The notes under the pieces were generated by a model. The model saw only the letters and a list, made by a program, of their open reading frames with translations, ran no database searches and was not told where the DNA came from. Positions 16,992-48,278 of a stretch of 64,000 nt of DNA are shown one piece after another. Both the position numbers and the translations under genes were made by a program. Position 1 is the first letter of the stretch. Every line of letters begins with the position of its first letter. The stretch lies in the IMG/VR virus record IMGVR_UViG_3300027007_000013. One strand, given 5' to 3'. The DNA is from a virus. Taxonomy: Duplodnaviria > Heunggongvirae > Uroviricota > Caudoviricetes.

Positions 16992-17398
16992 TCTCGACCC
17001 TGCTGCGGTTTGCATCGTTCCTGGTGGTAGTGAGCGGTTCGATTCCGTGACGATGCCTGGCCCCCGAGCCCTCAGACGATACGTTGATAGGTTCGCGGGG
17101 CCTATGCTCACGCGGCATCCGTTAGTGATGCCGTTCCGTTCGGGTGGGATAGCACGCGTCGGGCTGTCTCGGCAAGGGCAACCACGTCAGTCGAGATCAG
17201 AGGCTCGTGCAAACCCGTTGCCCGGGGCATTTGTCCCCGGGCGCCCTTTGGTACCGCCTCGAGCGAGAGCTCTTGTTCTCTGACATCGCGTATCCGCGCC
17301 CGAGCGCGCAAACCCGGTGTGATCATGCTACGATCCTGTTCTATCAGCAATATTATCTGACAAAGATATTATTATATCAGCTCCAGCCTAAGGTAAAG

Positions 17399-32014: not shown

Positions 32015-32057
32015 AGCCCTATTGGTACGGCGAGTCGGTTCGATTCCGACCAGGGCC
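32015..32057 (+). ncRNA. tRNA-like acceptor/T-arm minihelix (not a complete tRNA)
   Basis: GCCCT..(13 nt)..GTCGG-TTCGATT-CCGAC-CC-AGGGC: a canonical T-loop with a 5-bp acceptor-like stem; no D or anticodon arms. Confidence 0.5.
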
Positions 32058-32091
32058 GTGTGCGCCCACACGCTGGCGCCCAAGAAGTAGC

Positions 32092-32520
32092 GTGGAACGG
32101 AACCATGACGCAGATAACCCAGGAGGTGGCGCAACGATGGAGGTAATCGTTACGCCGTACGGCAACGAACCGAAGTTAGTGACGAAGGCGGAAAGTCTGG
32201 TGCGCGACGGCTACGCTGCTGATGTGTGGGTACTATGCGAACGCATCCTCGCCTCGAATGGGGCTGATATGCTGGTCCAGTTGCGAAACGAGGATGGGGA
32301 CAACTGGCTCATCGAGGAGAAGGGGCTCGGGACAGCTGTGCTCCAGCAGGACTGCATCGCGATCGAGGCCGAACACCAGACGGAGAACGCGGTCCTCGTT
32401 GGTCGATACGCGACACCTGGCGGTCAGGGGACGGAGTCCGGGCTCCACCTCCGTGATACGCTCGGAGACATATGGCTTCCGAAAAGCCAGATCACCTCGT
32501 TTGAACTGAAGTCTGACTGA
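32092..32520 (+). CDS. hypothetical protein
   Basis: 142 aa; alternative ATG at 32137. Confidence 0.45.
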   Translation: MERNHDADNPGGGATMEVIVTPYGNEPKLVTKAESLVRDGYAADVWVLCERILASNGADMLVQLRNEDGDNWLIEEKGLGTAVLQQDCIAIEAEHQTENAVLVGRYATPGGQGTESGLHLRDTLGDIWLPKSQITSFELKSD

Positions 32521-32540
32521 CACCACCCCAACGATAGACC

Positions 32541-33074
32541 ATGCGACAAGATACCACAACGGAAGACGTGAACACACTGGAGCTGACGGTGAACGATGGC
32601 CACCCGCTCGACGCGGTCGCTGCGGCGCTTGATGCGCTGGACGTGACTGAGGACCGTATCCAGACAGCACAGATCGCAGTCACCTACGAACCCGACCACT
32701 CGGTACCACCAGAACCGGCTGTCGAAGATGAGCCAGTGCAGGACGAGGAAGAAACCGTCGAGCTCGACATCAACGTGGTCGATACCTGCTCCGTTTCGTA
32801 CGGGAGTCAAGCGCACGCGATCCTCAAACACCTCGAGGAGATCACGGACGAGAACGAGTGGGCAACCCCACTTGGGGTCGCAGAGCGACTCGGTGATGAA
32901 AGCAAAGCGACGACCGTGAGCGCGCAGATCTCGAAGTACCACGATCGTGAGTTGGTAGAGAGAGCGCCACGAGACGACATCCCGCAAACGGCATACAAGT
33001 ACAAGATCACGCTTCTTGGGCGGGAGGCGTTGCGTCGGTGCGAGTTCGAGGAGGACCAGAGCATCCCTGCATGA
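32541..33074 (+). CDS. putative winged-helix DNA-binding protein
   Basis: acidic N-terminal half; the C-terminal region is weakly reminiscent of a winged-helix domain (inference only). Confidence 0.4.
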   Translation: MRQDTTTEDVNTLELTVNDGHPLDAVAAALDALDVTEDRIQTAQIAVTYEPDHSVPPEPAVEDEPVQDEEETVELDINVVDTCSVSYGSQAHAILKHLEEITDENEWATPLGVAERLGDESKATTVSAQISKYHDRELVERAPRDDIPQTAYKYKITLLGREALRRCEFEEDQSIPA

Positions 33075-33352
33075 GTCGAAAACGGGCGGGACTCTCGCCG
33101 CGACAACTCGGTGCGTTGACTCGCGGTGGGTTGGTCGAGGTAGACGATGGGACGCGACGCTCCGTCGAGCTGTACTGTGTACAGGACGATGCAGAGGTGT
33201 GGACGAGAATCGCGACGACAGACGATGGGGAGGAGTTGACCGTACTTTCGTTCCCCGAGAGTACGTGGGAGGACGTCCTCGATGTCCTCGGTATCGACGA
33301 TGGACGCGATAAGGTCAAGGTCGGCTCGATGGTGTGGGTGTGTCGAGACTGA
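33071..33352 (+). CDS. hypothetical protein
   Basis: internal ATG of ORF 33038..33352. Confidence 0.4.
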   Translation: MSRKRAGLSPRQLGALTRGGLVEVDDGTRRSVELYCVQDDAEVWTRIATTDDGEELTVLSFPESTWEDVLDVLGIDDGRDKVKVGSMVWVCRD

Positions 33353-34051
33353 CGCTGCTGGTGGTAGTGGTGACAGGTCGATATTAAATATTCTTATACT
33401 TGCCACTGTATCGGGATGAGTGATCGGCGTAGATCAGGGTTAAAACTGTCTGATGGGCTTATCTGTGGGACAACCCGAAAGTTATAATGAGTTGGGGAGC
33501 AGAGTGTATGATACCGGATATGGATAGCCACATCGGGGTGGTAGACACGATGTTGATCACCCCAGACCCACACGAGCTGCACACGCACTACGAACTACTG
33601 GAGCTTGGGCGCGAGGAGTTCCACGGGACAGTCACTGTCGTTGGACTGGCATCGTAGCCTGACGAGACGATCTTCGAGATATGACCCCCACACTCGGGAC
33701 GCGGTTTACTGGTGTCCACCGTGAGTCCGATGTGTTGGTTCCATTGGTCAAAAACTCGGCCGTATGGCCCGTTAGGGCGGGATTATCGTACTATGTAGGG
33801 TCTGTATCTAAATACTTGCACGCCGTAGTGTATGCTACGGGAAAGTGCCCTGTCCTCTCAACAGTGCAGAGCACAGACCCGTTCAACTGGGTAGCTGCGA
33901 GCGACCCCCTTTCGGAACGTGAGCGATCCACCTGGGGAGGTGTCGCCTCACGTCGCTCTCAGTTTTACGTACTCACGCCCGTGAGACTGGTGTCTCTCAT
34001 TCCGTTCGATTCGGGACACGGGAATCACCCATCTGGGTGAGGTTTCAAACG

Positions 34052-34459
34052 ATGGAAGAACTACCGCCGACAGCTGAGCCGGCGCACGAACAGGAGTATA
34101 ATGTGACGATGCCGCGCGAGATGGTCGTCTACTACGACACGGTGCTGGACCAGACGATCACGGTCCGTGACGTCGACGACTCGGACGACGGGTTCGTCAC
34201 GTACCACCCTGACGGTGACCCGGAGGGGATGCAGAGCGATCCCATGAATCGCTTCTTGGCGTGGTTGGCCGCTGGCCGCTTCGTCAAGCTGGGCGACCGA
34301 ATGGAAGCACATGGGCTCGACGCGAGTGACAAGGAGGTAGCCCGAGTCTTCGCCGAGGCGTACGGATACGACCCGCGCGAGTTCCGACCGATGGAGCTCG
34401 CTCGGTTCCTCCTATCCGAGCGGCTCGACGAAACGTTGATCATGGAGGAAGATGGATAG
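34052..34459 (+). CDS. hypothetical acidic protein
   Basis: 135 aa. Confidence 0.45.
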   Translation: MEELPPTAEPAHEQEYNVTMPREMVVYYDTVLDQTITVRDVDDSDDGFVTYHPDGDPEGMQSDPMNRFLAWLAAGRFVKLGDRMEAHGLDASDKEVARVFAEAYGYDPREFRPMELARFLLSERLDETLIMEEDG

Positions 34460-34785
34460 CGCGCTGCAAGACTTCGACGAAATAGAGGTGTCGGACGACG
34501 ACTGGCACCACCTGGAGGTCACGATGTGCGGCGCGGAGGTCGAGGGGATCGTCTTCGACGGCGACATCGTCTTCGCCACGGAGCAGTACATGTCGGGGCG
34601 AACCGACCTGGACGACGTCGACGTGGGTCGCTAACTGGGTACGACCCATGTATCTTCCCCATTACCGGTCTATTCACTCCTGCTGACTATTCGATATAGA
34701 TTGTACGGCATCAACCCCGAAACGGGTATTTGTATATAAAATCACCGCAACACTTTTCTGATACTAAAGACCAACTATCACATAG

Positions 34786-35460
34786 ATGAGTGGTGGACGC
34801 CGCCCGGACATTGACAGGTCCCCGTTCCGGGACGAGATCCGTATGCTCCTCAAGAGCAAGGGTCGTGCGCATAGCCCGACCTACGAGGAGCTGCAAGAGA
34901 CGATCGAAGAACGGTACGGAGAGGAACTCACTGTCCGACAACTCCGCGACTACATGAACAAGGAGTTGCTCCCCGAGGAGCTCATGCCCGCCAAGGAGGC
35001 GCAGGAGGAGTTAGAGCGCCGGAAGGAAACGGTCGATATCGCCGCCAAGCGACAGGAACTGGTCGAGCTACAAGAGTCGCGACTGGGGAAAGCAGTCGAC
35101 ACGGAGGAGCAGATGGGTGGGATGCTCCTCGACCAGGTGAATGAACAGATCGAGCTGAAAGACAAACTGCTCGAATCCCTGTCGAAAGACTACGAACGGC
35201 TTGGTGTCCTCCAGTCCACGTCGGACATCGATATCGACGTCAACCAGATTCAGGCCGACCCGTTCAGTCAGATGCTCGCCGAGTCCCTCCAGATCGAGCT
35301 CGAGGAAGATACTGACGACGAGCATGCTGACTACCGCGACCCGGAGGACATCCGCAACGAAGCTGAGTCTGACGAGGAGTTCGAGGAAGGTGAGTCCGAG
35401 GACGCCTGGATGGACAAAGACCCCGACGAGATCAGCCTCGACGACCTCCCCGACGAGTAG
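34786..35460 (+). CDS. putative terminase small subunit (coiled-coil, acidic C-terminus)
   Basis: immediately upstream of the terminase large subunit; basic N-terminus, coiled-coil middle, very acidic tail. Assignment by position only. Confidence 0.4.
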   Translation: MSGGRRPDIDRSPFRDEIRMLLKSKGRAHSPTYEELQETIEERYGEELTVRQLRDYMNKELLPEELMPAKEAQEELERRKETVDIAAKRQELVELQESRLGKAVDTEEQMGGMLLDQVNEQIELKDKLLESLSKDYERLGVLQSTSDIDIDVNQIQADPFSQMLAESLQIELEEDTDDEHADYRDPEDIRNEAESDEEFEEGESEDAWMDKDPDEISLDDLPDE

Positions 35461-35477
35461 CCACTACCACCAGAAGC

Positions 35478-35514
35478 GTGTGTACGTACATACGCGCCCA
35501 TACGTACATACACC
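35478..35514. repeat. GTACGTACATAC repeat element (palindrome-family variant)
   Basis: GTGTGTACGTACATACGCGCCCATACGTACATACAC, directly after an ACCACCAG motif. Confidence 0.6.
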
Positions 35515-35532
35515 CCCTGAAGCCCTCCCCAA

Positions 35533-37176
35533 ATGCCCACAGCGAACCTCCTGAACACGAAGGCCGGCAAGTTCGGCCAGGTCCCCGGCGCCGCCTCTCG
35601 CGCTCGCATGTCCGAGCTCGTCGAGGGGAAAGGTGCGATCGACCTTCGCGACTACCAGTCCCACTTCGAGCAAGCGTTCGACGATCCCGTCGAAGCACAG
35701 ATCAAGTTCGAGAACTGGTGTTGCCGAGTCAAAGACACGCTGATCTCGTCGTCGGGTATCGATCTCCGACCATACCAGAAGGAGTTCTCCGATCGCATCA
35801 TCAAGTCCGTCGTTCGGAATGATGGACAGACGTTCTTCGCCGAATGGGCTCGTCAGAGTGGAAAAACGGAGACACTGGCCTCGACGGCCTACGCGGTGTC
35901 TGTCCTGTTTGCCCCGATCCGCATCGGTATTTTCGGTCCGAAGCAGCGACAGGCGCAGATCATGTGGGACCGCGTGAAAGAGCGGTACAACCAGGAGGTT
36001 CTCGACGGACTTGGGCTCGAGATCGAGAAGTATGGGGGAAACACGTTCAAGCTCTCCTCTGGGTCCGTGGTTCAGGCGATCACGGCTGGCTCGGGGAACA
36101 TTGAGGGGGAGACATTCGACCTGATCCTCATCGACGAGACGCAGAAGATCAGCCGCCGGATGCTCCTTGCGGAGATCTGGCCGATGGGGGCGGAGACCAA
36201 CGCGACGAAGTGTTGTATCGGAACGCCGCACTTCCAGGACTGCTGGTTCCGAGAGCAGCTGGAGCGGCTGAAGGGCACGCCGTTCTGTATGATATACGAC
36301 TGGCGGACGCCGGCGAAATACTCGAAGAACTACCGGAAATCGATCGCCCGCCAGCTGGAGCAGATGAGTCCGGAGTCCGAGGAGTTCCGCACACAGTACG
36401 AGCTCGAGTGGATTCTGGAGTCGGGGATGTTCATCACGATAGAGGACTGGCGCCGGATGAACCCGCCGCCGCTCATGACCCCGGTCGTGACGAAAGAGGA
36501 GCTGTACGACAGCGAGATCAACTCGAAGTGGCAAGTGAGAGCGGGCGTCGACCTCGCGAAAGAACACGACTCGACTGTTCTGACGGTCACTGGCAAATAC
36601 TTCGGGTCGTGGGAGCCATACTGGGATGGCTTCTCGGAGGAGACGATCGTACTCCTCGACGTGGTCGAATTGGAGGGCCTCGAGTACCCGGACCAGATAG
36701 ACATCATTCAGGAGGAACTGGACCGATGGCACGCCGACGTGCTTGGAGTGGACTCGACTGGTGTCGGCGACCCGGTGACAGATATCCTGAAGCGAGAGCT
36801 GAACCAGCACGTCGAGGGCATCAAGTTCACGTCATCGAGCAAGCACGACCTGTACAAACACGTCGAGCGGAAGGTGAAGGTCGAGGAGGAATGGGACTAC
36901 TGCAACTTCGTGATCCCAAAGAAGGTCCGCTCCTACCCACACCTGGAGGTGTCGATGCGGAAGATGGAAGAACAGTGGTTGGAGCTGACGAAAGAGTACA
37001 AAGGGTCACGCATGAGTGTTGAGGGACCGGATAGCGGGCACGACGACTACCCGGACAGTGCAGCCCTCTCCATGTGGGTGCAGGACGCCGACTACAACAT
37101 CGACGAGAAGCACATGACCTCGCCAACCCCAGTCCTGGGGACGATGAACGGCATCGGGGCGAAGATCGGGTACTGA
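35533..37176 (+). CDS. terminase large subunit
   Basis: Walker A FAEWARQSGKT, Walker B DLILIDETQ, C-terminal RNaseH-like nuclease region; 547 aa. Confidence 0.8.
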   Translation: MPTANLLNTKAGKFGQVPGAASRARMSELVEGKGAIDLRDYQSHFEQAFDDPVEAQIKFENWCCRVKDTLISSSGIDLRPYQKEFSDRIIKSVVRNDGQTFFAEWARQSGKTETLASTAYAVSVLFAPIRIGIFGPKQRQAQIMWDRVKERYNQEVLDGLGLEIEKYGGNTFKLSSGSVVQAITAGSGNIEGETFDLILIDETQKISRRMLLAEIWPMGAETNATKCCIGTPHFQDCWFREQLERLKGTPFCMIYDWRTPAKYSKNYRKSIARQLEQMSPESEEFRTQYELEWILESGMFITIEDWRRMNPPPLMTPVVTKEELYDSEINSKWQVRAGVDLAKEHDSTVLTVTGKYFGSWEPYWDGFSEETIVLLDVVELEGLEYPDQIDIIQEELDRWHADVLGVDSTGVGDPVTDILKRELNQHVEGIKFTSSSKHDLYKHVERKVKVEEEWDYCNFVIPKKVRSYPHLEVSMRKMEEQWLELTKEYKGSRMSVEGPDSGHDDYPDSAALSMWVQDADYNIDEKHMTSPTPVLGTMNGIGAKIGY

Positions 37177-37256
37177 ACCCCTCTGACAACCTAACATTTT
37201 TCTGGTAATACCACATTAGCAATACACTTAAGCGTAGGTAGTACCAGATTTGTGAT

Positions 37257-37397
37257 ATGGGAAGAACAGTCGAGACGGGCGCCGTGAACGAGCGTCCTGA
37301 AGATATTCGGGAAGAAGGACAGTGTCCGTGCTGCGGGACCGAAGTATCCGCAGAAGACCACGACCACGAGTGCAGCTGCTCGGACGAGAGCGAGTAA
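37257..37397 (+). CDS. small zinc-ribbon protein
   Basis: CPCCG...CSCSD. Confidence 0.3.
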   Translation: MGRTVETGAVNERPEDIREEGQCPCCGTEVSAEDHDHECSCSDESE

Positions 37398-37413
37398 CCT
37401 GGAGTCGCCCTGA

Positions 37414-39147
37414 ATGAGTGACGCAGAAACACCGACAGACGACGCGAACGATCCAGTCGAGATCACCGCCGAGGTCGAGTCGGCTGACGGCACAACGGCA
37501 ACGGTCACCCGATCGGCATCGCTGGCCGAAGTTGTCTCTGAGCCCCGCGAGATCCTCGAGAAAGATCAGTTCGAGACTGACTTCGACCTGTATGAACGGC
37601 TCATAGAGATCGACCCCGAACTGGCTGGGACGATCCGCGCACAGGCACAGCTGGCCTCTGGCTTCGAACTAATCCACCCCACTACAGAAGGAGACAGTGA
37701 GGAGCCGACGGACGCAGATGTGACCGCACATAACGACTGCATGGAGCTGGTCCAGGCCCTGGACCTCGACCTGTCCCAGCCGTCGATGTTCAAGCACATG
37801 ATCGGGATGGGTAACGACATCTCGAAGATCATCTATTCGGATGGCGTTGGCGTGACTGGTCTCCAGTCGCTCCCCCTCCGGTCGGTGACGATCATCGACG
37901 AGGACACACAGCCGGGTGTGCAGAACGCAATTGCTGAAGCGAAAAAGCAGGCGCAGGACGACGAGGAGATCGAGCTCACGACGTACACCGATAACCTCCC
38001 GGACGCAGTCGTACAGGATGCCGACTTCTACGTCCTGAACGAGGGCAAGAAGGACATGAAGATGATCGAGTCGTGGAAGATCCTTCACCTCGCTGTCGAG
38101 CGCCGTGGCAACTGGTTCACCGACAAGTTCGACCGCAAGACCTACGGGGTGTGGGGTGCCCCGCGAATCGAGCCGACAAAGTTCGCCCTCCAGGCCAAGC
38201 ACAACACGCTCACGAACAAGGTGTCGATGGATGACTCACTGATCGCCCGTGAGATCTACCACATCGACGTCGCCACGCTATTCGGCCACATCAATAACGA
38301 CGACAAACGAGAGAAGAAAGCGAAAAAGTACGCCTCCGACCTCAAGGAGACACTCGAGGGACTGGGTCCCGACGAGAAGCCGATCCTCCCGGACGAAGTG
38401 AGCGTCGACGTTCAGGGACCCGAGGGGAAGGCCAAAGAGCACGGTGACTTCCTCGACCTGATGAACGATTCCATCATGCACGCACTGACGTTCAACGTCT
38501 CTGGCGTCGGGCGTGACGCTGGTGGACCGTACATTGGGAACCGGCCGGCGAAGGATACGTCGCTGAACAACGTCCGGCACCTTCGCGAGACGATGGGTCG
38601 ACAACTCCGGAAGCTGTTCAAGATCCACCTGCTCCTCAAGCACCCCGAGTGGCGCGAGGATATGGCCGACCCCGAGGACGTCTCGACATGGAAGCTCCGC
38701 GATGACATCACGCTCCCCAAAGTCGAGTGGGCGCAGATGGAAGACGGAGACCTCGAGCGCATCGTCAACGCGGCGACGAAAGCGTACGGGTCGAAGCTGA
38801 TCACGCGTAACGAGGCCCGAGAGATGTTCGGCCTCGACCCGATCCCCGACGACGAGATCGACCGCCTGTTCCAGGACCAGTTCATGAACATGGAGATTCA
38901 GGACGAGTTCAACCGACGCCAGCAAGAGCGTCAACAGGAGGATGCCCCCGAACGGGATCAGGATACTGAGGAAGAAGACGAGGAGGATGCAAGTGTTGCT
39001 CAGACCGCCTCCACCTCACTACCACCAGAAGCGCAAGAAACAGTCGCGAATGAATCGTTCCGATCGGCGCTGGCCACAGGGTTCGATGACGCTGTGTCGA
39101 ACATGAACGTCGCGCTGAGTCAGGGGGATGCTGATGACACTGAGTGA
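37414..39147 (+). CDS. portal protein
   Basis: 577-aa gene immediately after the terminase with an acidic C-terminal tail; assignment by synteny and size. Confidence 0.6.
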   Translation: MSDAETPTDDANDPVEITAEVESADGTTATVTRSASLAEVVSEPREILEKDQFETDFDLYERLIEIDPELAGTIRAQAQLASGFELIHPTTEGDSEEPTDADVTAHNDCMELVQALDLDLSQPSMFKHMIGMGNDISKIIYSDGVGVTGLQSLPLRSVTIIDEDTQPGVQNAIAEAKKQAQDDEEIELTTYTDNLPDAVVQDADFYVLNEGKKDMKMIESWKILHLAVERRGNWFTDKFDRKTYGVWGAPRIEPTKFALQAKHNTLTNKVSMDDSLIAREIYHIDVATLFGHINNDDKREKKAKKYASDLKETLEGLGPDEKPILPDEVSVDVQGPEGKAKEHGDFLDLMNDSIMHALTFNVSGVGRDAGGPYIGNRPAKDTSLNNVRHLRETMGRQLRKLFKIHLLLKHPEWREDMADPEDVSTWKLRDDITLPKVEWAQMEDGDLERIVNAATKAYGSKLITRNEAREMFGLDPIPDDEIDRLFQDQFMNMEIQDEFNRRQQERQQEDAPERDQDTEEEDEEDASVAQTASTSLPPEAQETVANESFRSALATGFDDAVSNMNVALSQGDADDTE

Positions 39148-39994
39148 CCAACTCATGGAGCACGTAGACACACTCCGTTCGGAGCACGAAGAAGCGACCG
39201 AGACACACATGCGCGACGCATACGATGATGGGGCGTACCAGGAAGCAAAGTGGCTTCGTAACCTGGGCGTCCAGGTCACTACCCCCGACCCTGAGCCGGG
39301 GGACGAGCTCGATGAAATCCGAGAGCGAGCTGCGTCTCGCACCCGGTGGTACGACGATGCGCTGGAAAATGCCGTATTCTCAAGTCTCGAAGAATCGAAG
39401 GGTAGCGTCTATGAGACGCTTGCTCGCGTGTTCGACGATGGGTTCACGATCACTCCCGGAGAAGCGCCGGTCAAGTGGGTCAGTCCCGATGGTTCGGCGT
39501 CGTTTGACGACCGCACGGTCGCCTCGATAACGCTCGATCCTGAGACCTACTTCGAATGGGTGACGGCGGTGGCTATTGTCGAAGCACGGAGTGCCGGCCG
39601 CGTATCCGTTCAGCTCGAACTGGGCGAAGTCATGGGTCACGTGTGGGTCGACCCGCTCGACGAACAGACGACCCCCATGGCCGCTCGCCTCCACGGTGAA
39701 ACGTACGGCCGAGACGGCTTCCCGTTTTACCCACCTGTCGCATACGGCGGGCGGTCGCGTGTGTGGCCGGTGTTCGAAGCATCGTCGACGCCGGCGGCAC
39801 GGCTCCCGTCGGTAGATACGCTCGTGGGCCAGCGAGAACGCTGGTTCATCAACTACTCGCGGATGCAGAACGGGGAGCTCCCGGAAGACGACTGGGCGAG
39901 CGAGCCTGTGGTCGAGGGAGAATACAACCTGGCGTTCATCTACACGCAGTTACTCCCGCGAGACCCTGCACAGTACCTCCCCACCAACGAATAA
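39128..39994 (+). CDS. head morphogenesis protein (MuF/SPP1 gp7-like)
   Basis: position after the portal and size of 288 aa; by synteny. Confidence 0.45.
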   Translation: MLMTLSDQLMEHVDTLRSEHEEATETHMRDAYDDGAYQEAKWLRNLGVQVTTPDPEPGDELDEIRERAASRTRWYDDALENAVFSSLEESKGSVYETLARVFDDGFTITPGEAPVKWVSPDGSASFDDRTVASITLDPETYFEWVTAVAIVEARSAGRVSVQLELGEVMGHVWVDPLDEQTTPMAARLHGETYGRDGFPFYPPVAYGGRSRVWPVFEASSTPAARLPSVDTLVGQRERWFINYSRMQNGELPEDDWASEPVVEGEYNLAFIYTQLLPRDPAQYLPTNE

Positions 39995-40260
39995 TGTCCC
40001 CCAACAAACCACTCGCAGACTGGCAAAAGCTGACGATCATGGCCCAGGCCCCGTTCCGGGGCAACCGGACTATCGCAAAGCGCGCGGAATGCTCTGTCTG
40101 GGCTGTTAGGAAGTACCGCTCGATGATGAAGGAGAACGGCCACGCCCTCGACGTCGGAGTGACCGAGGAGTACGATGAAGCCCTCGTCTCAGAGGAAGCG
40201 ATGGAGATTTTCGACACGATCGTCGACGAAGGGCTGAACCAGGAGCGCGGGAGGATATGA
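39994..40260 (+). CDS. hypothetical HTH-like protein
   Basis: NRTIAKRAECSVWAVRKYR. Confidence 0.4.
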   Translation: MSPNKPLADWQKLTIMAQAPFRGNRTIAKRAECSVWAVRKYRSMMKENGHALDVGVTEEYDEALVSEEAMEIFDTIVDEGLNQERGRI

Positions 40261-40487
40261 TGCCCCGGGCGAAGGACGTGGTGAGCGTCCTCCTGGTCGG
40301 CGCTGTCACGAGCGTGTGGCTCTACCAGACGCTCGACCCGGCGCTGGCTGAGGACTTCGCTATTAAAGCCCTCGCACTCACGTTCGCGGCTGCTGGTGGT
40401 ATCACACTGTTCGGTCGTGGGACGATGAGAGCTGCAAAGAGGGTGGCTGAATCGACACTCCGCCCGCGAGAAAAGACCGAGGAATGA
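40257..40487 (+). CDS. small membrane protein
   Basis: two hydrophobic segments. Confidence 0.4.
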   Translation: MMPRAKDVVSVLLVGAVTSVWLYQTLDPALAEDFAIKALALTFAAAGGITLFGRGTMRAAKRVAESTLRPREKTEE

Positions 40488-40885
40488 GACTCGTCAAACA
40501 GGAGAACTGGAACGATTGTGCGCCAGCATGTTTGGCCATGGTCACTGGCGTACCGATTACCGAAGTCAAAGGGTTCGTTCACGTCCCGACGACACACGCG
40601 GAGATGTATGCGTTTCTGTATCATCGGGTCGACGAAGTGAATCTGATCCCGATTCTCGACGAGATGAAATTTCGCGACGTGAGAAGGAGAGATGAGCTGT
40701 TCCGCGACAATCGCCCGTTCGATGAGCGGACGGTGATCCTGACCGTGTCTGCGCCGTATCCAGAAGTCTCCTGGCACGCCCTCGTCATCCACGACGGAGA
40801 GGTACTGGACCCGAAGCAGGAGTGGAACGACGTTGACGGACTCACAGACGTAAGTTGCGTATGGGGATTCGACATCAAGCCCTGA
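40484..40885 (+). CDS. papain-like (C39-type) cysteine peptidase domain protein
   Basis: NWNDCAPACLAMV supplies the catalytic Cys; WHALVIHDGEV supplies the His. Confidence 0.5.
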   Translation: MRLVKQENWNDCAPACLAMVTGVPITEVKGFVHVPTTHAEMYAFLYHRVDEVNLIPILDEMKFRDVRRRDELFRDNRPFDERTVILTVSAPYPEVSWHALVIHDGEVLDPKQEWNDVDGLTDVSCVWGFDIKP

Positions 40886-40974
40886 GCCTGTCGACTTCCC
40901 AGACAGGTGGGAGATAGAAGGGTCGAATCACCAGACAAGTAAGCTTTTTATCAATGTAACGTATTTGGTAATAT

Positions 40975-41994
40975 ATGCAAGCTGTTGTAGATGCAACTGG
41001 AAACGCACCCAGCCTCGCACCCCTGAACGCGCGCCGCTCTCGATTCAGCCTCCCAGTCGCTGGAGAGACGATCATCGAGCGCGTCGTAAGCGGGCTCGTC
41101 GATATCGGTGTTGAACGGATCGCGATTGTCACGGACGAAGACTCCATCCGGACGATCTTCGGCGCTGAGCGCGGTGTCGATCGGCTCGGCATGGAGGACG
41201 TCGAACTGTGTTTCATCCCGCACTACTACGGCGACACAGCGTCGAAGACACGCGGTCTGGCGGAAGACACTGGCTTCCTGTGGGTCCGTGGCGATACACT
41301 CTACGACTGGGAGACGATTGCCCAACTCGCCGAGCACGATGCGGCACTCGGATACGTCCCTCACCCGCACGAGGCGGCCCACGGGAAGCTCCAGATCAAC
41401 GGTGACGACCTGCGCGCATCGCCCGGCGAATACACACACTCTGGGGCACACCTGGCCTACGCGTACAAGTTCCCACCCCGAGCTCACGAGTGGGACTACG
41501 GAATCGATCCGATGACAGAGGAACTCGCCACGGAGCCCGGCACAGAGGAGGTCTCGATTCGCTGGACGCCGATCACGAACCCGAGAGACTATCTGCAAGC
41601 GAACCTCGAGCGGGCCGGTGCTGGTGGTAGTGAGATGTCGGTCGATGGAACACTGGTCGGACCCTGCGTGATCGGAGAGGACGTGACCGTCGGACCGGGT
41701 GCTGTGGTCGAATCGTCTGTGCTCCTGGACGGTGCGACTATCGGTGCCGGATCGTACGTTGGATACTCAGTGGTCGACGAGGGCGTCACTATCGAACAGA
41801 ACGTGACGACGAATACGCGAGCAGCCAGTGGGGAAACGGTCGTCGCAGAGTTCGGCGGCGAACGGGTAGACACTGGGATGACGGAGTTCGGGACAGTCTT
41901 CGGCCCAGGGGTGACGGTTCAGGCCGGGGCGACGGTCATGCGCGGGACCACGATCGACACGGGACTGACTGTTGATCCTGGGGAAGTTCGCTGA
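40975..41994 (+). CDS. sugar-phosphate nucleotidyltransferase fused to a left-handed beta-helix (GlmU-like)
   Basis: N-terminal nucleotidyltransferase fold; C-terminal hexapeptide repeats VGPCVIGEDVTVGPGAVVESSVLLDGATIGAGSYVGYSVV. Confidence 0.6.
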   Translation: MQAVVDATGNAPSLAPLNARRSRFSLPVAGETIIERVVSGLVDIGVERIAIVTDEDSIRTIFGAERGVDRLGMEDVELCFIPHYYGDTASKTRGLAEDTGFLWVRGDTLYDWETIAQLAEHDAALGYVPHPHEAAHGKLQINGDDLRASPGEYTHSGAHLAYAYKFPPRAHEWDYGIDPMTEELATEPGTEEVSIRWTPITNPRDYLQANLERAGAGGSEMSVDGTLVGPCVIGEDVTVGPGAVVESSVLLDGATIGAGSYVGYSVVDEGVTIEQNVTTNTRAASGETVVAEFGGERVDTGMTEFGTVFGPGVTVQAGATVMRGTTIDTGLTVDPGEVR

Positions 41995-42038
41995 GTGCGT
42001 GAAAACCCGTATCAGAGCCTGATAGCGTAGGAGATTCA

Positions 42039-42365
42039 GTGTACGTCGAAGACCTCTCATCCGGCTACCTGCTGACGAAGCTCAGCGTCGAACTGTGGGA
42101 CGAGGACTACGGGGCGATGGACTACGCAGACCACGGAATCCTGTCTGACGTCGTCTACGACGGTGGCCGCCATCCGTTGTTGATCAAAGGACAGCGACAT
42201 CGGTCGATGTACATCCCCGTCTACCCCGAATCGTCGGTCCCACGAGATACGGTATTCGTCCCTGGTGAGGGTCGAGCACCGCAGCCGGAACAGGAACGCA
42301 TACTTGTCGCAAAACGTGCACATGCCCTCAAGCTACTCAGGCTGATGAGCCACGACCCCCTCTGA
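42039..42365 (+). CDS. hypothetical protein
   Basis: 108 aa. Confidence 0.4.
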   Translation: MYVEDLSSGYLLTKLSVELWDEDYGAMDYADHGILSDVVYDGGRHPLLIKGQRHRSMYIPVYPESSVPRDTVFVPGEGRAPQPEQERILVAKRAHALKLLRLMSHDPL

Positions 42366-42370
42366 ACCCC

Positions 42371-42404
42371 CGCACGTACATATACACACGCACATATGTA
42401 CGTG
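42371..42404. repeat. 34-bp palindrome, copy 2 of 3 identical
   Basis: identical to 7274..7307. Confidence 0.9.
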
Positions 42405-42902
42405 CAAAAGGGTAGAGAGTCTGAAAGGGATTAGGTAGGAAAGTTTTCATTCCGACGTGTGCCGACCCTGTTTCCAGACCGTAACCCCCCACCTCTCGGG
42501 CCTGTAAACCACTCTCCACGCAATCCGGCCGAAAAGGCCCTCTAAACCGCACTCTCAGAGCTTCTATCCTTTGAATATGCCATGTCTGAGCGACATTCTG
42601 GGTATCCAGACTGGTTTCCCCTCACCAACCACTCATGTCCGATACCGCAGGATAACCACCCTGACACTCGTACCACCAGGAACGAAGGCCCGTATTCCTT
42701 CAAGATATACAGAGACAAGCAGAGTGGAATCGATAGACTGCACTGACCTCCACGCATATACGAAAAACGACAGAACAGAAATCTTTAATATCACATCCCA
42801 CATATTTCTATTCACCCACAGCTACCCAGTGGGACGTGCTCCCCGAGTGCGTAGAACGGAGATATACATGAAGGAATGGCGACAGAAGTGGAGGAATAGT
42901 CT

Positions 42903-43784
42903 ATGAACGAACGTGCGCAGTCAGCGGCTGGGCCGATTGCGGTCGTGGTCCTGGTCGGTGCCGTTATCCTTGTCGGAGTTGGTCTCGCGTCGATGCAGAC
43001 AGTCGACGAGGGACACGTCAAAGTGGTCACCTACAAAGGCAACGCCGAAGGGACGTTCTACCCCGGCAACTGGTATTTCATCAACCCGATCACGCAGGGG
43101 ACCGTGTCGGTCGACGTTCGGCCACAGGTGATGCAGATGGTTGCTGCACAGGGAGAAGGCGAGCGTTCCGAGTTCGACGACTCGATCAAAGTAGTGACTA
43201 ACGACAACATGCGAGTGCCAGTTGACGTTGCGATCACCTACCAGGTCGACGACCCGGTCACCTTCTATGAGGAGTGGAAGACTCACGACCAGGCCCGACA
43301 GCGGGCGATCCGACCTGGGTCCCGGGCCGCCATCTACACCGTTGGTGGTGGGATGTCCGGTACCGAGATCACCAACGACGAGGCACGAGAGCGGATGCGC
43401 CTCGCTGTTGCTGAAGAACTGGAAGACCGGTTCGACGGGACGGGGCTCGCTCTGATCGCTGTCGACATCCGTGGCGTGTACCCACCCGACTCGTTCCTGG
43501 ATGCGGCCGAGAACGCCCAGGCCGAGCGTCAGGAGATCATCGCTGAACAGCACCGACAGGAAGTTGCCAGAGAGCACGCAGAAACGCTCCGTATCGAAGC
43601 CGAAGGTGAGCGAGACGCCCGCCTGATCCGCGCCGAAGCGTACGAGAACGACGCTGTCCTCGAAGCGATGTACATCGACGAGCTCAGCGAGTCCAACGTG
43701 ATCTACGTACCGGTCGGTAACGATGGCGTGCCACTGTTCATGGACGTCAGCGACGACGAGAACAGTACAAGCGGGAGTCCGTAA
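42903..43784 (+). CDS. SPFH/band-7 (stomatin/prohibitin-like) membrane protein
   Basis: N-terminal TM helix then a band-7-like region (VDEGHVKVV...ITYQVDDPVTFYE) and a coiled-coil tail. Confidence 0.55.
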   Translation: MNERAQSAAGPIAVVVLVGAVILVGVGLASMQTVDEGHVKVVTYKGNAEGTFYPGNWYFINPITQGTVSVDVRPQVMQMVAAQGEGERSEFDDSIKVVTNDNMRVPVDVAITYQVDDPVTFYEEWKTHDQARQRAIRPGSRAAIYTVGGGMSGTEITNDEARERMRLAVAEELEDRFDGTGLALIAVDIRGVYPPDSFLDAAENAQAERQEIIAEQHRQEVAREHAETLRIEAEGERDARLIRAEAYENDAVLEAMYIDELSESNVIYVPVGNDGVPLFMDVSDDENSTSGSP

Positions 43785-43787
43785 GTC

Positions 43788-43970
43788 ATGGCTCTCGCGG
43801 TCGTGGGCCTCCTGCTCGTGTGGGTGTCTCTGTGCATCGTTACGTTCGTCGCCTATCGGATGTACATGCGCCACCGCGACCGGAAGCACGAGGAGCGTAT
43901 CAAACAGCTGGAGACGCAGCAAACGCTGTTCGAGAACGACGAGCTGTTCGACGACGAGGACCTGTAAGAT
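43788..43970 (+). CDS. small membrane protein
   Basis: MALAVVGLLLVWVSLCIVTFVAY...; followed by another 31-aa TM peptide at 43969..44064. Confidence 0.35.
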
Positions 43971-44071
43971 GATCCCGCCCGAATCGTACTGGATGGCGGC
44001 GGGAGCGGTACTGGGCGTCGCGGGGACGCTCCTGGGACTGTACCTCGACGGGTACATCCCGTAGCGGCGAC

Positions 44072-44117
44072 TGTCGGCCCGGCTGGGTCATTCGGGGTTC
44101 GAATCCCCGACCGACAC
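44072..44117 (+). ncRNA. tRNA-like acceptor/T-arm minihelix
   Basis: TGTCGG..(15 nt)..CGGGG-TTCGAAT-CCCCG-A-CCGACA: a perfect T-arm with a 6-bp acceptor-like stem. Confidence 0.5.
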
Positions 44118-44128
44118 TGGGGTGACCA

Positions 44129-44941
44129 ATGCAAATCAAACAAATCGCAGGCACGCCGCACCCCGAGCGACTGGTGAGTCTGTGTGCACGAAACGACTAT
44201 CGAGCTGATGGCGTCATCGACCACTCATTCGCCGAGATCATGGCGGGTGTGAAAGTGGACGACGACGTCGTCGACGATCTCCGTGAGGAGTGGTTTGACG
44301 ACGACGATGTTGCACGGGACGACCCGTGGGATGCGATGCCAGCCGAGTTCAGAACAGAAGCAGAACAACGATCGCTCCTCAAGCATACCATGAACGAGGG
44401 CCACTGGGGCGTGTTCGAGCACCCACAGGCGACGCTCGCGCTCGAGGGTATCACCCGGACATCGATGGCGCAGATCACGCGCCACCGACACTTCACGTTC
44501 GACATCATGTCCCTCCGATACGTCACACTCGACTTCGACTCGGTCGAGGAGATGAAGGAGCGATTCGCCGAGCCTGATGAGATCACGGCCGAGGAGGTCG
44601 TGAGTCGGAACGGCGTCGAGACCATCGACATGGACCCCGACGAGCGCGAGGAGATCTGGTGGGAGACGATCGCCCACACCGCCCACACCTACAACACACT
44701 CGTGGACGCTGGCGTCCCTCAGGAAGAAGCGCGCAAAGTCCTCGGTATGGGAACGAAGGTCAACATCATGATGTCTGGGAACGCCCGGGCCTGGATGCAC
44801 CTTCTGAACATCAGAGGGAAAGCGAACGTCCAGGGAGAGGCCCGAAACATCGCTGACGGCGTGATGGGCGAGATGAAGGAGTGGATGCCGTACACGTTCG
44901 AGCGGTACGACGACATGCTCCCACTGAGACTGAACCCATGA
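44129..44941 (+). CDS. thyX: flavin-dependent thymidylate synthase ThyX
   Basis: ThyX signature RHRHFTFDIMSLRY (RHRX7S). Confidence 0.8.
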   Translation: MQIKQIAGTPHPERLVSLCARNDYRADGVIDHSFAEIMAGVKVDDDVVDDLREEWFDDDDVARDDPWDAMPAEFRTEAEQRSLLKHTMNEGHWGVFEHPQATLALEGITRTSMAQITRHRHFTFDIMSLRYVTLDFDSVEEMKERFAEPDEITAEEVVSRNGVETIDMDPDEREEIWWETIAHTAHTYNTLVDAGVPQEEARKVLGMGTKVNIMMSGNARAWMHLLNIRGKANVQGEARNIADGVMGEMKEWMPYTFERYDDMLPLRLNP

Positions 44942-45384
44942 GTCAGAAGAAGCTTCCACGATACCAACGGCTGACACCACCGAGAGTACACAACGATGAT
45001 TACGCCACATACAGAGGCGAATCGATCGGATGGGTTGGACGAGCGGAGAACCGTCGTGGGAATGTATTCGTCCAGTATCGACCGAAGGGGGTGAAAGAGC
45101 TCCGTAAAGAGGACGGTCGTCGAACAGTCTCGTTCACGACGGGAATCCTCGACTACGTACGCGAGCAGCTTGGTGCCAAATGGTTGCTCTCGATCATGTA
45201 CACAGGGCGCGTCCTGGAGTACGACCTTGCGCAGTTCGATGATGGATGGGTCGGTGGTAAGCACCCGGAGACGACGGAGGCGATCGTCAACCTGTACTTT
45301 GAGGACGCGCTGTACGAGTGGGAGTACGGCCAGATCAAACTGACTGAGCCGATAAACGAGCTCGAGAAGGAGTATGAACAGTGA
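44938..45384 (+). CDS. hypothetical protein
   Basis: 148 aa. Confidence 0.45.
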   Translation: MSQKKLPRYQRLTPPRVHNDDYATYRGESIGWVGRAENRRGNVFVQYRPKGVKELRKEDGRRTVSFTTGILDYVREQLGAKWLLSIMYTGRVLEYDLAQFDDGWVGGKHPETTEAIVNLYFEDALYEWEYGQIKLTEPINELEKEYEQ

Positions 45385-45549
45385 ACCCAACGGAAGCGCG
45401 ACAGCGCGTGAAGGACGAGTTCGCACTGGCGGCCGACCTGATGGCGACTGGTGACGTCGAACCAGAAGTGATGCGAGAAATGGTTGACAACGTGATCGGT
45501 CGATACAACGCCTATCTCGGCGACGAGATCGAAAACATCTACGAAGACA

Positions 45550-46008
45550 ATGAGTAACGCAAACACTACAGACGCAGACGCAACGATTCAGAGCAGAGAC
45601 GACATCCCGGACCGCGACGAGCTCGTCGAGCTTCGACGCGACCGTGGCCTCACGAACGGTGAGATCGCAGAGAATCACATCACCGAGTTCAGCTCTCGAC
45701 AGATAGGGATCTTCGCCTCGATGTACGGCATCGAGAAGGGCTGGAAGGACGCTGAGTACGTGCAGGAACAAATCGATAGAGGGGTGACCCCCGAAGAACT
45801 GGCCGAGCAGTGGCCGATCACGGCCGGCACCGTTCGCGGCTGGATGGCCGAACACGGTATCGAGGAGAACCCGATCCCTGACGCTTACGCCGACGCGGTC
45901 GAGGCGCTGGAACACCTCGCCGAGGTCGTCGACGACGACGATCTCGCGACCGAGTACGAGGAGTTCGCGAACGAGCTCGTCGACGACGAGGGTAGCCTGT
46001 TCAACTAA
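45550..46008 (+). CDS. HTH-containing protein
   Basis: EELAEQWPITAGTVRGWMAEHGI. Confidence 0.45.
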   Translation: MSNANTTDADATIQSRDDIPDRDELVELRRDRGLTNGEIAENHITEFSSRQIGIFASMYGIEKGWKDAEYVQEQIDRGVTPEELAEQWPITAGTVRGWMAEHGIEENPIPDAYADAVEALEHLAEVVDDDDLATEYEEFANELVDDEGSLFN

Positions 46009-46010
46009 CC

Positions 46011-46751
46011 ATGGCCTCGGTAAAGGAACTGTTCAGGTGGCACATGGGCCTCAAAGCAGATATCGCGGAGATGGCGGAGAGTCTGGAGGTTGAGAACCCT
46101 GACGAACTGGTGAGACAGCTGCGCGACGACGGATACCCGATTAGAGACGACGACCCAGACTACGGAACAATGGCAACCACGCAAGACACAGAAACTGACG
46201 GACAGAACGATGAACACCCCCTCGCGACGGAGAAAAACAGTCTCAAATCTGTTGACAACCTGAACGAGATCTACGCGGACCTGGAGACGAGGGACGATTA
46301 CCCATACGACGAAGTTCCATCGAAAGAGCTGTTGAAGCGACTCCTGCACTACTGGGGGTTGAAAAAGATCCATGCGGCTGGTATCCTGGAGGAGAAGTCG
46401 TCAGCAATCAGCACGTACACGGAAGCGTACGGCTTAAAGAGAGCGTGGAACGATCCTGACGCGATCCAGCGTGCGATCGACAACGGAGATACGGTTCATG
46501 AGCTCGCCGAGCGATGGGTTATCAGTGAGTCCACGTTGAGAAAAGCCATCGACAAGTACGACATCCGCACGATGTCGCTCATGGTCGCCTACTCGGAAAT
46601 CATCGAAGCAGGAGACGTGATACTCGAGCAGACGGACAACCCCGAGTTGGAAGAACAGCTTCGACAGGTGATCACGACTGTGAAAGCGGAGAGAGGGATG
46701 GAAAGTAGTGAGATCGGACAAAAGACAGTTGTAGAGGCTGAGGCCGAATGA
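46011..46751 (+). CDS. HTH-containing protein
   Basis: TVHELAERWVISESTLRKAIDKYDI; paralogous HTH to the 45550 and 18948 proteins. Confidence 0.5.
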   Translation: MASVKELFRWHMGLKADIAEMAESLEVENPDELVRQLRDDGYPIRDDDPDYGTMATTQDTETDGQNDEHPLATEKNSLKSVDNLNEIYADLETRDDYPYDEVPSKELLKRLLHYWGLKKIHAAGILEEKSSAISTYTEAYGLKRAWNDPDAIQRAIDNGDTVHELAERWVISESTLRKAIDKYDIRTMSLMVAYSEIIEAGDVILEQTDNPELEEQLRQVITTVKAERGMESSEIGQKTVVEAEAE

Positions 46752-47065
46752 GTACCGAGCGGTATGAGGAGTCTTCGGTCGGTGAGCCGAACATCCTCGA
46801 AGAAGCCAACGACACGGTCGGTCAGCGGGCCGAGGAGTACGGGCCGCCGACTGAGAACTTCCGGTGCATCGCCGACATGTGGTCTGGATACCTCGGCATC
46901 GAGGTGACGCCGTACGACTACGCGATGCTCATGCAGCTCGCGAAGATCGGGCGCACCAAGACCGGTGGACCTGACCGGGACACGCACGTCGACATCCCGG
47001 GATATGCGCTCACGGCCGATCTCGTCAATCAGGACGGGTCGGAGCCAGGGCCGTACCTCGGCTGA
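46748..47065 (+). CDS. conserved phage-like small protein
   Basis: 105 aa with the RAEEYGPPTENF...DMWSGYLG motif. Confidence 0.45.
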   Translation: MSTERYEESSVGEPNILEEANDTVGQRAEEYGPPTENFRCIADMWSGYLGIEVTPYDYAMLMQLAKIGRTKTGGPDRDTHVDIPGYALTADLVNQDGSEPGPYLG

Positions 47066-47067
47066 TG

Positions 47068-47115
47068 TCCTAACTAATCTCACCCACACGAGCCGTTCGA
47101 ATCTTAGTTAGGACA
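47068..47115. repeat. inverted repeat TGTCCTAACTAA(24 nt)TTAGTTAGGACA
   Basis: perfect 12-bp arms; the loop contains the T-loop-like GTTCGAATC. Confidence 0.8.
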
Positions 47116-47254
47116 GCGAAACGCTCAGTTCCCAAACTCGTGTTTCGAGACGACGATGGAGCTACAGTAATGCGTTTGACCGATAGTAAGAAAATAGACC
47201 TATCAGTATTAGAAAACTATATACTCGCACACTGACTACTCTTAGCAAACAAGC

Positions 47255-48217
47255 ATGCCCACCCAGTTAGCAGTTGAAGCGGACAGCAAGAACCACTGGG
47301 CGCTCCTGTGCCTCGCGCTCTACCAGGAGGAGCACGCGGCGGGAGCTACCACACGTGAGTTGTACGAAACGGCCGATGGCGTCTTCGACAACGCACAGCG
47401 CCTCTCCGGCGCGTTCCACTCCCTGTACAACAAGCGCCGCCTCCTCGAGCGTGAAGACGACCTGAGTCATCCGAGGGCGTACCGCTACTATCTGAACGAA
47501 AGCGGATGGTCGATGCTCAAGCACATCGGAAGCCCGACGCGAACGCCCGGCGGTGATCGTGTTCGGAGTATCGACATCCCTGACAAACCACCGGCTGTCA
47601 AAGCGCCAAGTGAGTACAAGCAGGTCGAGATCACCGACGATGCTGACGAAGCAGGTCAGGACCCTGGCCCGTTCGAGTCCGCCAAGTCACGGCGCCGGTA
47701 CTTTGCCCAACAGGACGAGAGTGAGTATCTCGACTGGCTGGAGAACAAGTGGGCGCCGAACCACCGCCTGACTGACGAGCAGTCTGGGATGACGGGGGAG
47801 GAGGTCGACGAGATGATCGAGCTGAACCGTCGAGCGGAGGCGAACGGCGAGGTTCGGTTCGAAGGCCACGATGAGATGATGGAGCAGGTGTTCGGCGATG
47901 ATGACGACGAGGAGGAGTCGGTGGAGACGATCGATCTCTCACCCGACTGGGACTGGCTTGGGACGCAACTCGTCAAGCTCGGATTCGTCGGTCTCGCACG
48001 GGATGCGTTCGAGGCGAAGCTCTCGCCGCGCATCGTCTACAACGACGTTCTCGACACGATTCAGGAACACGCTGGTGATCCAGATGCCGACCTGGACCTG
48101 GAGACCGGCGCAGGTGGTGCGACCATGGTTGAGGCACCGGCCGACCCGGAGCAGGTGTCCCGGTTCAAGCAGGCACTCGGCATCGACAACACGGACTCCG
48201 ACACAGCCACCGCCTAA
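47255..48217 (+). CDS. hypothetical protein with a possible N-terminal winged helix
   Basis: 320 aa; TATATAC box about 30 bp upstream. Confidence 0.5.
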   Translation: MPTQLAVEADSKNHWALLCLALYQEEHAAGATTRELYETADGVFDNAQRLSGAFHSLYNKRRLLEREDDLSHPRAYRYYLNESGWSMLKHIGSPTRTPGGDRVRSIDIPDKPPAVKAPSEYKQVEITDDADEAGQDPGPFESAKSRRRYFAQQDESEYLDWLENKWAPNHRLTDEQSGMTGEEVDEMIELNRRAEANGEVRFEGHDEMMEQVFGDDDDEEESVETIDLSPDWDWLGTQLVKLGFVGLARDAFEAKLSPRIVYNDVLDTIQEHAGDPDADLDLETGAGGATMVEAPADPEQVSRFKQALGIDNTDSDTATA

Positions 48218-48238
48218 AAAACACCTACCACCAGCAAC

Positions 48239-48278
48239 GCCCGTTTGGAGCACGGCGGTTCAACTCCGCCGGCGGGCC
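48239..48278 (+). ncRNA. tRNA-like acceptor/T-arm minihelix
   Basis: GCCCG..(9 nt)..CGGCGG-TTCAACT-CCGCCG-GG-CGGGC. Confidence 0.45.

Follow-up and report, generated by a model that had tools for sequence, protein, structure and literature searches.

In the 64,000-nucleotide (nt) stretch of DNA analysed here (hereafter the window), which belongs to a tailed virus of halophilic archaea (IMG/VR record IMGVR_UViG_3300027007_000013), we found six canonical transfer RNA (tRNA)-like minihelices, named A to F, and one atypical relative, named G. All seven lie on the + (coding) strand and all are intergenic. The canonical copies consist of an acceptor-like stem and a T-arm, they are conserved in related viruses with compensatory changes in their helices, and they have the same architecture as the t-element found in the leader of the haloarchaeal host 5S ribosomal RNA (rRNA). 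We read them as viral t-elements, that is, as sites at which ribonuclease (RNase) P and tRNase Z punctuate polycistronic transcripts, and we assign this reading a probability of roughly 0.7. The cleavage of the viral RNA at these sites, and its effect on gene expression, would be the work of the host enzymes.

The elements emerge from the window by three routes. The motif GGTTCRANTCC is present five times, always on the + strand, against 0.44 expected, and five occurrences were reached in none of 100 shuffles. A scan for a T-arm hairpin with a flanking acceptor stem returned six + strand copies, elements A to F. The third route was a covariance model (R1), whose seed comprised eleven viral copies with the linkers trimmed to 12 nt and the helices left intact, element F being outside the seed; MAFFT had been unable to align the 5′ acceptor strands across the variable linkers. 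With linkers trimmed to a fixed length in the seed (A3/R1) and in the pair counts given below (A5), the linker is not faithfully represented in either. A further alignment (A4), contaminated by real tRNAs from a plasmid gene cluster, was excluded from the statistics. When both strands of the window were searched with R1 and the filters off, the top six matches were A to F (E-values from 1.7e-10 to 4e-3), and the next match had E = 0.029. In a negative control, the first 50 kb of the halovirus HVTV-1, R1 gave no match at E <= 0.1, which indicates that the elements are lineage-specific rather than universal. Chance resemblance in GC-rich DNA is a practically negligible explanation: short GC stems are common at 60% GC, and the loose scan yields about two weak matches per strand, but the motif excess, the R1 ranking, the covariation statistics and the HVTV-1 control speak against it, together with syntenic conservation in five or more independent relatives.

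The copies share a single register, in which a 7-position acceptor stem abuts a 5-bp T-stem. Acceptor positions 2 to 6 are essentially always paired and the ends of the stem are variable, with 1:72 often A.C and 7:66 often mismatched. The linker between the acceptor 5′ strand and the T-stem has 8 to 23 nt and nearly always contains UGG or GG; the D-stem and the anticodon arm are absent. The T-loop has 7 nt (UUCRANU), and an invariant U follows the discriminator. This trailer (N73, U, then G/GG) is of the same kind as in the 25 real tRNA genes of a Halobaculum plasmid cluster. The features by which a t-element is recognised, namely an acceptor-like stem stacked on a T-arm with GGUUCRANYCC and the absence of an anticodon arm, are found in six of the elements, G having a UCGAA loop. 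A gene map kept conservative on purpose leaves all seven in its gaps; they are on the coding strand, the genes around them are closely spaced, and between these there is no conserved promoter. Five of them start 18–41 nt past an upstream stop codon: A at 18 nt (stop at 9277), B at 20 (16991), F at 21 (48217), G at 22 (14998) and C at 41 (31973).

Element A (9296..9350, + strand) has the acceptor ACCCGGC/GCCGGGC, the T-arm GGTGG-TTCGAGT-CCACC and the discriminator G9350; its 23-nt linker includes an extra 6-bp hairpin, its minimum free energy (MFE) fold is the minihelix, and its R1 E-value is 0.0033. Element B (17012..17057, +; E = 1.8e-8) has a perfect 7-bp acceptor, GCATCGT/ACGATGC, the linker TCCTGGTGGTAGTG and the T-arm AGCGG-TTCGATT-CCGTG. 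The best match of the model is element C (32015..32058, +; E = 1.7e-10), with acceptor (A)GCCCT(A)/(C)AGGGC(C), linker TTGGTACGGCGA and T-arm GTCGG-TTCGATT-CCGAC. Element D (33977..34024, +; E = 1.9e-6), located 27 nt before the ATG at 34052, combines the acceptor GCCCGTG/CACGGGA and the T-arm TTCCG-TTCGATT-CGGGA with an inner 4–5-bp hairpin (AGAC-TGGT-GTCT). Element E (44072..44117, +; E = 1.9e-7) precedes the thyX ATG at 44129 by 11 nt and has the acceptor TGTCGG(C)/(A)CCGACA and the T-arm CGGGG-TTCGAAT-CCCCG. Element F (48239..48278, +) has a 7-bp acceptor with two G.U pairs (GCCCGTT/GGCGGGC), the 8-nt linker TGGAGCAC and the T-arm GGCGG-TTCAACT-CCGCC; its fold z-score is −2.4, and R1 recovers it at E = 0.0041 although it stood outside the training set. 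In the atypical element G (15021..15066, +), a 7-bp acceptor-like stem, GGCGTCG/CGACGTC, encloses a hairpin with the loop UCGAA in place of the 7-nt T-loop; its R1 score is 14.1 bits (E = 0.27).

A sequence-only reading of this DNA had described three of these sites, C, E and F, with T-arms as found here, and had counted three in all, which is too low: A, B, D and the atypical G had escaped it. It had placed 1–2 nt between the T-arm and the 3′ strand of the first stem. That arrangement is better described as a 7-position acceptor abutting the T-stem, with mismatches often at 7:66 and/or 1:72, and in F the full 7 bp form. Two of the three stop codons it had put directly upstream (31973 and 48217) are correct; the third, at 44064, belongs to a doubtful open reading frame (ORF), and the upstream gene more likely ends at 43967. 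It had also held that no complete tRNA is present, and two programs agree: ARAGORN detected no tRNA either in the window or at the orthologous sites, and the Rfam tRNA model gave no match at the gathering threshold or at a relaxed one (E <= 10, including a search of a 2-kb slice). A complete or unusual tRNA was thus rejected as an identity for the elements, also because only 8–23 nt separate the acceptor 5′ strand from the T-stem. An intrinsic terminator was rejected as well, each element being followed by N-U-G/GG, with no U-run.

To follow the elements in other genomes we used three sources. The first is an 88.6-kb IMG/VR contig (loci L001–L003), with protein identity of ~80–95% to the window. 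The second is the 148.9-kb circular plasmid NZ_CP058532.1 of Halobaculum halophilum (L006, L010, L011), whose large terminase (TerL) is 84% identical. The third comprises several metagenome contigs (L007, L008, L009, L012, L015), with TerL identity of 64–70%. Syntenic orthologs were found for A, B, C, D and F; G is conserved too, and E has a positional counterpart only. In the ortholog of A (L002:6021-6064) a T-stem pair changes from U-A to G-C, and G is kept in L002 and L010, in both cases following the HATPase ortholog. The orthologs of B (L002:13728-13777 and L010:31923-31982) carry compensatory changes. For C (L001:3392-3434) the helices are identical and the upstream flank has diverged. 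D has three orthologs (L001:5399-5446, L006:7810-7858 and L015:228-274), among which each of its three helices has undergone double compensatory changes, the inner hairpin included, where AGAC/GUCU becomes AGGC/GCCU. In the orthologs of F (L003:8197-8236 and L011:12273-12314) an acceptor G-C is replaced by A-U and the T-stem is also changed. The counterpart of E before thyX (L007:11716-11760) follows a different upstream gene, and every stem is altered yet paired. When 90-nt flanks are included in the alignments, the elements appear as islands of conservation in diverged surroundings.

The surroundings of element E also differ among relatives. An SPFH/Band_7 gene, a small ORF and element E form a block (window 42903-44120) that is missing from the closest relative, where the same 540-nt non-coding region directly adjoins thyX (L001 16437-16980). 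In the Halobaculum plasmid the SPFH block is present and element E is not.

Across 17 copies, standard pairs occupy 89.7% of the pair cells against 56% in shuffled alignments and at most 48% in slid registers, and the covariation score is 0.83 against 0.20, a value matched in none of 500 shuffles; the copies were partly chosen by a scan that requires pairing, so that these family-wide figures are inflated. Since the copies were partly picked in this way, and since paralogs may stem from different tRNAs, the count within orthologous sets is the fairer one. Of the 54 pair cells that changed there, 27 did so by a double compensatory change and 9 by a single change that leaves the pair intact; in 9 the pair is broken (mostly at 1:72 or 7:66), in 4 a pair is created and in 5 one unpaired state gives way to another. 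The T-loop, in the same sets, has 5 changes in 98 positions. Covariance across related viruses and a search with a tRNA top-half model were among the checks that the sequence-only reading had proposed; the pairing is conserved through compensatory change, and A to F rank first in the window.

The closest structural match to the viral elements is found in the hosts. In Haloferax volcanii a t-element lies directly upstream of 5S rRNA and the tRNase Z cut generates the 5S 5′ end, according to passages of PMC4326828 (citing Hölzle 2008, 2012) and of PMC7714728; furthermore, RNase P and tRNase Z both act in vivo on the Haloferax t-element when a copy flanks a CRISPR RNA (crRNA) on each side (PMC4326828). 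We compared four rRNA operons on haloarchaeal plasmids, retrieved through their 5S genes, from Haloarcula, Halorussus, Natrinema and Natronorubrum. R1, built from viral copies only, detects an element directly upstream of 5S rRNA in 4/4 operons (E from 6e-7 to 1.6e-4). In Haloarcula marismortui, as read from the sequence, the discriminator of the element is the base before 5S nucleotide 1 (position 300/301); in the other three operons, to judge by coordinates alone, the model match stops where the 5S match begins or just short of it. The published primer for the start of the Haloferax t-element (PMC4326828) and the Natrinema copy have their first 11 nt, ACCGATATTGG, in common. When the Haloferax t-element primer (ACCGATATTGGTATGGCAACC) was searched against genome contigs, only two Bacteroidales metagenome-assembled genomes matched.

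Host and viral elements have in common a 7-position acceptor, often with A1.C72, the T-arm GGUUCGAUUCC, a linker of ~10 nt with UGG, a discriminator, and a U after the cut site. The host element is on the sense strand, inside a longer transcript and directly ahead of the RNA that receives its 5′ end from it; the viral copies, on the coding strand, would likewise be part of longer transcripts. The two differ in context: the haloarchaeal 5S t-element is present once per rRNA operon and serves to mature a stable rRNA, whereas the viral copies number up to seven per 64 kb and lie between protein-coding genes, mostly 18–41 nt past a stop. Cleavage has been demonstrated for the host 5S element only, and from it we infer cleavage of the viral copies. 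By the shared architecture and the common model, the viral elements pass the structural tests for the t-element class. The proposal of tRNA-mimic RNase P/tRNase Z punctuation, already advanced by the sequence-only reading among other options, is thus favoured by the host 5S-element architecture, the shared model and the compensatory changes.

For the punctuation of mRNAs, the closest functional analogue is in plant mitochondria. In wheat and Arabidopsis, t-elements flanking mRNAs were found through GGTTCRANYCC; RNase P makes mRNA 3′ ends at them and RNase Z makes 5′ ends, and the excised t-elements are stable and can receive non-templated C/A (PMC1920247). They are tRNA-like structures with the same GGTTCRANYCC motif, and both fold and motif were found in the window. 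Unlike the viral elements, they are organellar, processed by a protein-only RNase P, and many have a fuller non-canonical cloverleaf; the two kinds are not related by descent. In animal mitochondria, the tRNAs embedded in polycistronic transcripts are the cut sites for RNase P and RNase Z. Those punctuation units are functional tRNAs, whereas the viral elements have no anticodon arm, which makes a decoding role impossible.

Minihelices of the same kind are present in a second group of haloviruses, the HF1/HF2 group, which belongs to a different family. In Serpecor1 (L023), R1 finds two full-length copies at 31242-31286 and 29775-29820 (− strand), which is the coding strand there; both are intergenic and unannotated (E = 5e-6 and 8e-6), and a weaker third match lies upstream of an SPFH gene. 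The region with the two minihelices was found in 41 records, and both copies are present in the early region of all seven HF1-group genomes examined (Serpecor1 and six others), with compensatory U-A/C-G exchanges in the acceptor stem. In HF2 (L024) the two, again unannotated, are at 2905-2949 and 4375-4418, and each is followed by a hairpin, GTAGC-NNNN-GCTAC, and then by the start context GTGACACCGATG. Neither the annotations of the genome records nor the passages of the halovirus literature at hand mention these minihelices.

For these viruses, transcript processing was already suspected. According to the available passages of PMC8707807, HF2 transcripts reach 35 kb and Northern bands measure 0.5–9 kb, and phiH1, like HF2, has very long primary transcripts and much shorter final RNAs. 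Other tRNA-like genes, and a ribozyme, have been reported in the group in passages of PMC7230728 and PMC8707807. A tRNA-Arg(TCT) has lost 28 nt by internal deletion, at a site where the gene of a sister virus is complete (PMC7230728); a conserved aberrant tRNA-Pro lies 17 nt ahead of terL, and one operon contains a hammerhead ribozyme (PMC7230728, PMC8707807); and one partial tRNA-Thr beside an integrase acts as attP (PMC8707807, PMC7230728). These features come from the same kind of virus as the window, and in those passages, unlike here, they were described as pseudogenes, as attP or with no function assigned. The reported cases indicate that cut sites at the RNA level are not unusual inside halovirus operons.

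The partial tRNA-Thr bears on another possibility raised by the sequence-only reading, that the elements are attachment (att) cores, i.e. 3′ halves of host tRNAs kept for site-specific recombination. It offers a real precedent, but several observations make this account of the window elements very improbable. The elements possess a 5′ acceptor strand, which covaries with the 3′ strand; identity to the host tRNA is required of an att core, and the copies diverge freely between relatives; the seven share a single orientation; no integrase domain was detected among the 20 ORFs tested; and the cultured relative is a free circular plasmid with a ParA gene. Furthermore, a blastn search of plasmids with element C gave no haloarchaeal match beyond the generic T-arm. 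All the matches of that search were generic T-arm ones (Xanthomonas and similar hosts), and it is therefore uninformative about host tRNAs.

As regards the origin of the elements, C is similar in its T-arm, acceptor 3′ strand and trailer to the tandem tRNA-Arg genes of the Halobaculum plasmid cluster. For at least this element, the most likely source is a virus-encoded tRNA gene that suffered an internal deletion. Taken with the published deleted tRNA-Arg, the likeness suggests that such elements arise from viral tRNA genes that lose the D-stem and the anticodon arm. The search for a parent tRNA was convincing for element C only, and none could be named for the others.

An origin of this kind is also compatible with neutral remnants, meaning virus tRNA genes that have lost the D and anticodon arms and are decaying without present function. 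The lineage is rich in tRNA genes (25 in the Halobaculum plasmid), element C is similar to the tRNA-Arg genes of that cluster, an internally deleted tRNA-Arg(TCT), 28 nt short, is reported from the HF1 group (PMC7230728), and element E is present in some relatives and missing in others. Decay, however, would not preserve pairing, and the 27 double compensatory and 9 pair-keeping single changes outnumber the 9 breaks. Hardly any change is seen in the T-loop, in contrast to the diverging flanks and linkers, all seven copies have one reduced architecture on the coding strand, equal to that of the functional host t-element, and the two HF1-group copies are retained in every genome checked. We thus consider neutral decay improbable.

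Several observations weigh against the reading of the elements as viral t-elements, beyond the inflated family-wide pairing figures given above. The MFE structure computed with RNAfold is the minihelix in 6/7 elements, but the fold z-scores are weak (−0.7 to −2.4), and thermodynamics alone would not carry the case. The acceptor stems are short, with 5–6 reliable pairs, and among the 17 copies position 1:72 is unpaired in 11 and 7:66 in 7. Element G has no true T-loop. Element E is missing from L001 and from the Halobaculum plasmid, and is therefore dispensable. Finally, the HF2 5′ end reported as “TSS T-4384” (transcription start site), mapped by primer extension according to passages of PMC8707807, falls at position 10 inside the second HF2 element, off the sites predicted for RNase P (4374/4375) and tRNase Z (4415/4416). 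If this is a true start, at least some transcripts begin within the element and are unable to form it; in primer extension, however, a processed end or a stop of the reverse transcriptase looks the same as a true start.

The same HF2 end, with a promoter-like box just upstream of 4384, invites the thought that the top half is functional for some other purpose: a CCA-tagged stabiliser of mRNA 3′ ends, a small RNA that is released and sequesters defence nucleases or host factors binding tRNA, or an element tied to a promoter, with an internal start. A role in CCA addition or stability, also raised by the sequence-only reading, would look the same as processing in the data used here. The five starts at 18–41 nt past a stop codon would also suit a 3′-end cap, and the released plant mitochondrial t-elements are stable and carry non-templated C/A (PMC1920247). 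Nevertheless, neither a 3′ cap nor a decoy can do without the same cuts by tRNase Z and/or RNase P, and both are thus add-ons to punctuation rather than true alternatives. As for a link to promoters, the AT-rich boxes upstream of the window elements are not conserved in relatives, and an internal start would leave the covariation of the two acceptor strands, 5′ and 3′, unexplained. Another purpose in place of punctuation is, in our view, unlikely.

If the elements are t-elements, the RNA would fold into a coaxial acceptor/T-arm helix of ~12 bp with the “elbow” recognised by host RNase P and tRNase Z. RNase P would then cut on the 5′ side of the element, freeing the upstream mRNA with a tail of ~20–40 nt past the stop codon, and tRNase Z would cut past the discriminator, freeing a downstream RNA that begins with U and often with a small hairpin. 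Such a hairpin is seen at 32062..32079 (+), 4 nt past the discriminator of element C (GCGCC-(8 nt)-GGCGC), and similar ones follow A (9353-9378), D (34026-34039) and F (48280-48296). These hairpins lie within 1–4 nt of the element and the ortholog alignments show them kept in relatives; each may be the structured 5′ end of the downstream RNA.

One of the released downstream RNAs would be a conserved structured non-coding RNA (ncRNA) and not an mRNA. Directly 3′ of element B, the stretch 17058..17340 (+) has a fold z-score of −3.95, and equal stability was reached in 0/200 shuffles. Its counterparts are L002:13778-14070 and L010:31983-32290, with a core of ~120 nt that is nearly identical although the proteins of those relatives are only 64–84% identical; it has no Rfam match. 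We consider it a candidate for a new viral ncRNA, which, by analogy with 5S rRNA, would owe its 5′ end to cleavage at element B. Long non-coding regions follow both G and B, and towards their ends the sequence is AT-rich and promoter-like.

Other motifs were observed near the elements. Imperfect ACGTAC-type palindromic repeats with the core GCACGTACATATGTGCGTGTGTATATGTACGTGC occur at 7255-7324, 15283-15320 and 42352-42421 of the window, in three long non-coding regions, with AT-rich promoter-like sequence downstream in each case; L001 retains the copy at 42352 (its 16440-16480), and the consensus pattern tried for these palindromes gave no match. Elements A and G have a common upstream box, CGTGGCGCGG(Y)(W)A(Y)CCGG (9270-9296 and 14999-15021), kept in L002 and L010, which suggests that A and G are paralogs that arose by duplication of a longer unit. 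The motif CCACCAGC immediately precedes element F (48225-48238), where L003 and L011 conserve it, and it recurs in the loop of the hairpin downstream of F (48285-48293). The idea that this pair is a target-site duplication was dropped, the downstream copy being in a conserved hairpin loop and the other elements having no flanking repeats.

The window has a GC content of ~60%, its predicted proteins are strongly acidic and almost every gene is on the + strand. Among the recognisable genes are TerL (35533-37176), the portal (37414-39147), thyX (44129-44941) and a class II ribonucleotide reductase (58586-61576), together with an SPFH protein, a DpdA-like protein and an Eco57I-type methylase. The protein encoded at 51098-52255 (+) matches DpdA (PF23859, E = 7e-20) and, weakly, TGT; from this similarity, the virus may put 7-deazaguanine modification into its own DNA. 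A Pfam analysis of the genes flanking the elements revealed no common functional theme. Megablast against a phage collection retrieved no close relative of the window, a profile search of genome contigs with the TerL alignment gave no match, and the window TerL is only ~30% identical to bacterial phage terminases. In several relatives TerL is split by a LAGLIDADG-domain intein (L001 7342-8432; proteins P0004 and P0006; L008 5519-8191), and the window copy is intein-free. The Halobaculum plasmid, which looks like a virus maintained as a plasmid, carries its ParA gene and its 25 tRNA genes, the latter in one cluster (L010 3010-9106, corresponding to 53–59 kb of NZ_CP058532.1); judging from synteny, this cluster would be located just upstream of the window.

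Going beyond the window, we tentatively propose, at a little less than even odds, that at least two unrelated halovirus groups, the tRNA-rich lineage described here and the HF1/HF2 haloferacalesviruses, keep minihelices derived from tRNA genes as a punctuation system. Host RNase P and tRNase Z would cut transcripts of ~20–35 kb into mRNAs and, in the lineage of the window, would also release an ncRNA of ~200–280 nt, as the host does with 5S rRNA. If true, this would explain how the long transcripts of haloviruses are processed, a question raised by the HF2 paper, whose available passages name neither signals nor enzymes (PMC8707807); sense-strand copies of a host signal provide a concrete hypothesis, directly testable in the existing HF2–Halorubrum and Haloferax systems. 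It would also flag unannotated functional elements in dozens of deposited halovirus genomes, and supply natural variants of the t-element cassette with which crRNAs are already produced in Haloferax. More generally, it would show that virus tRNA genes can be recycled as processing signals once their decoding role is lost.

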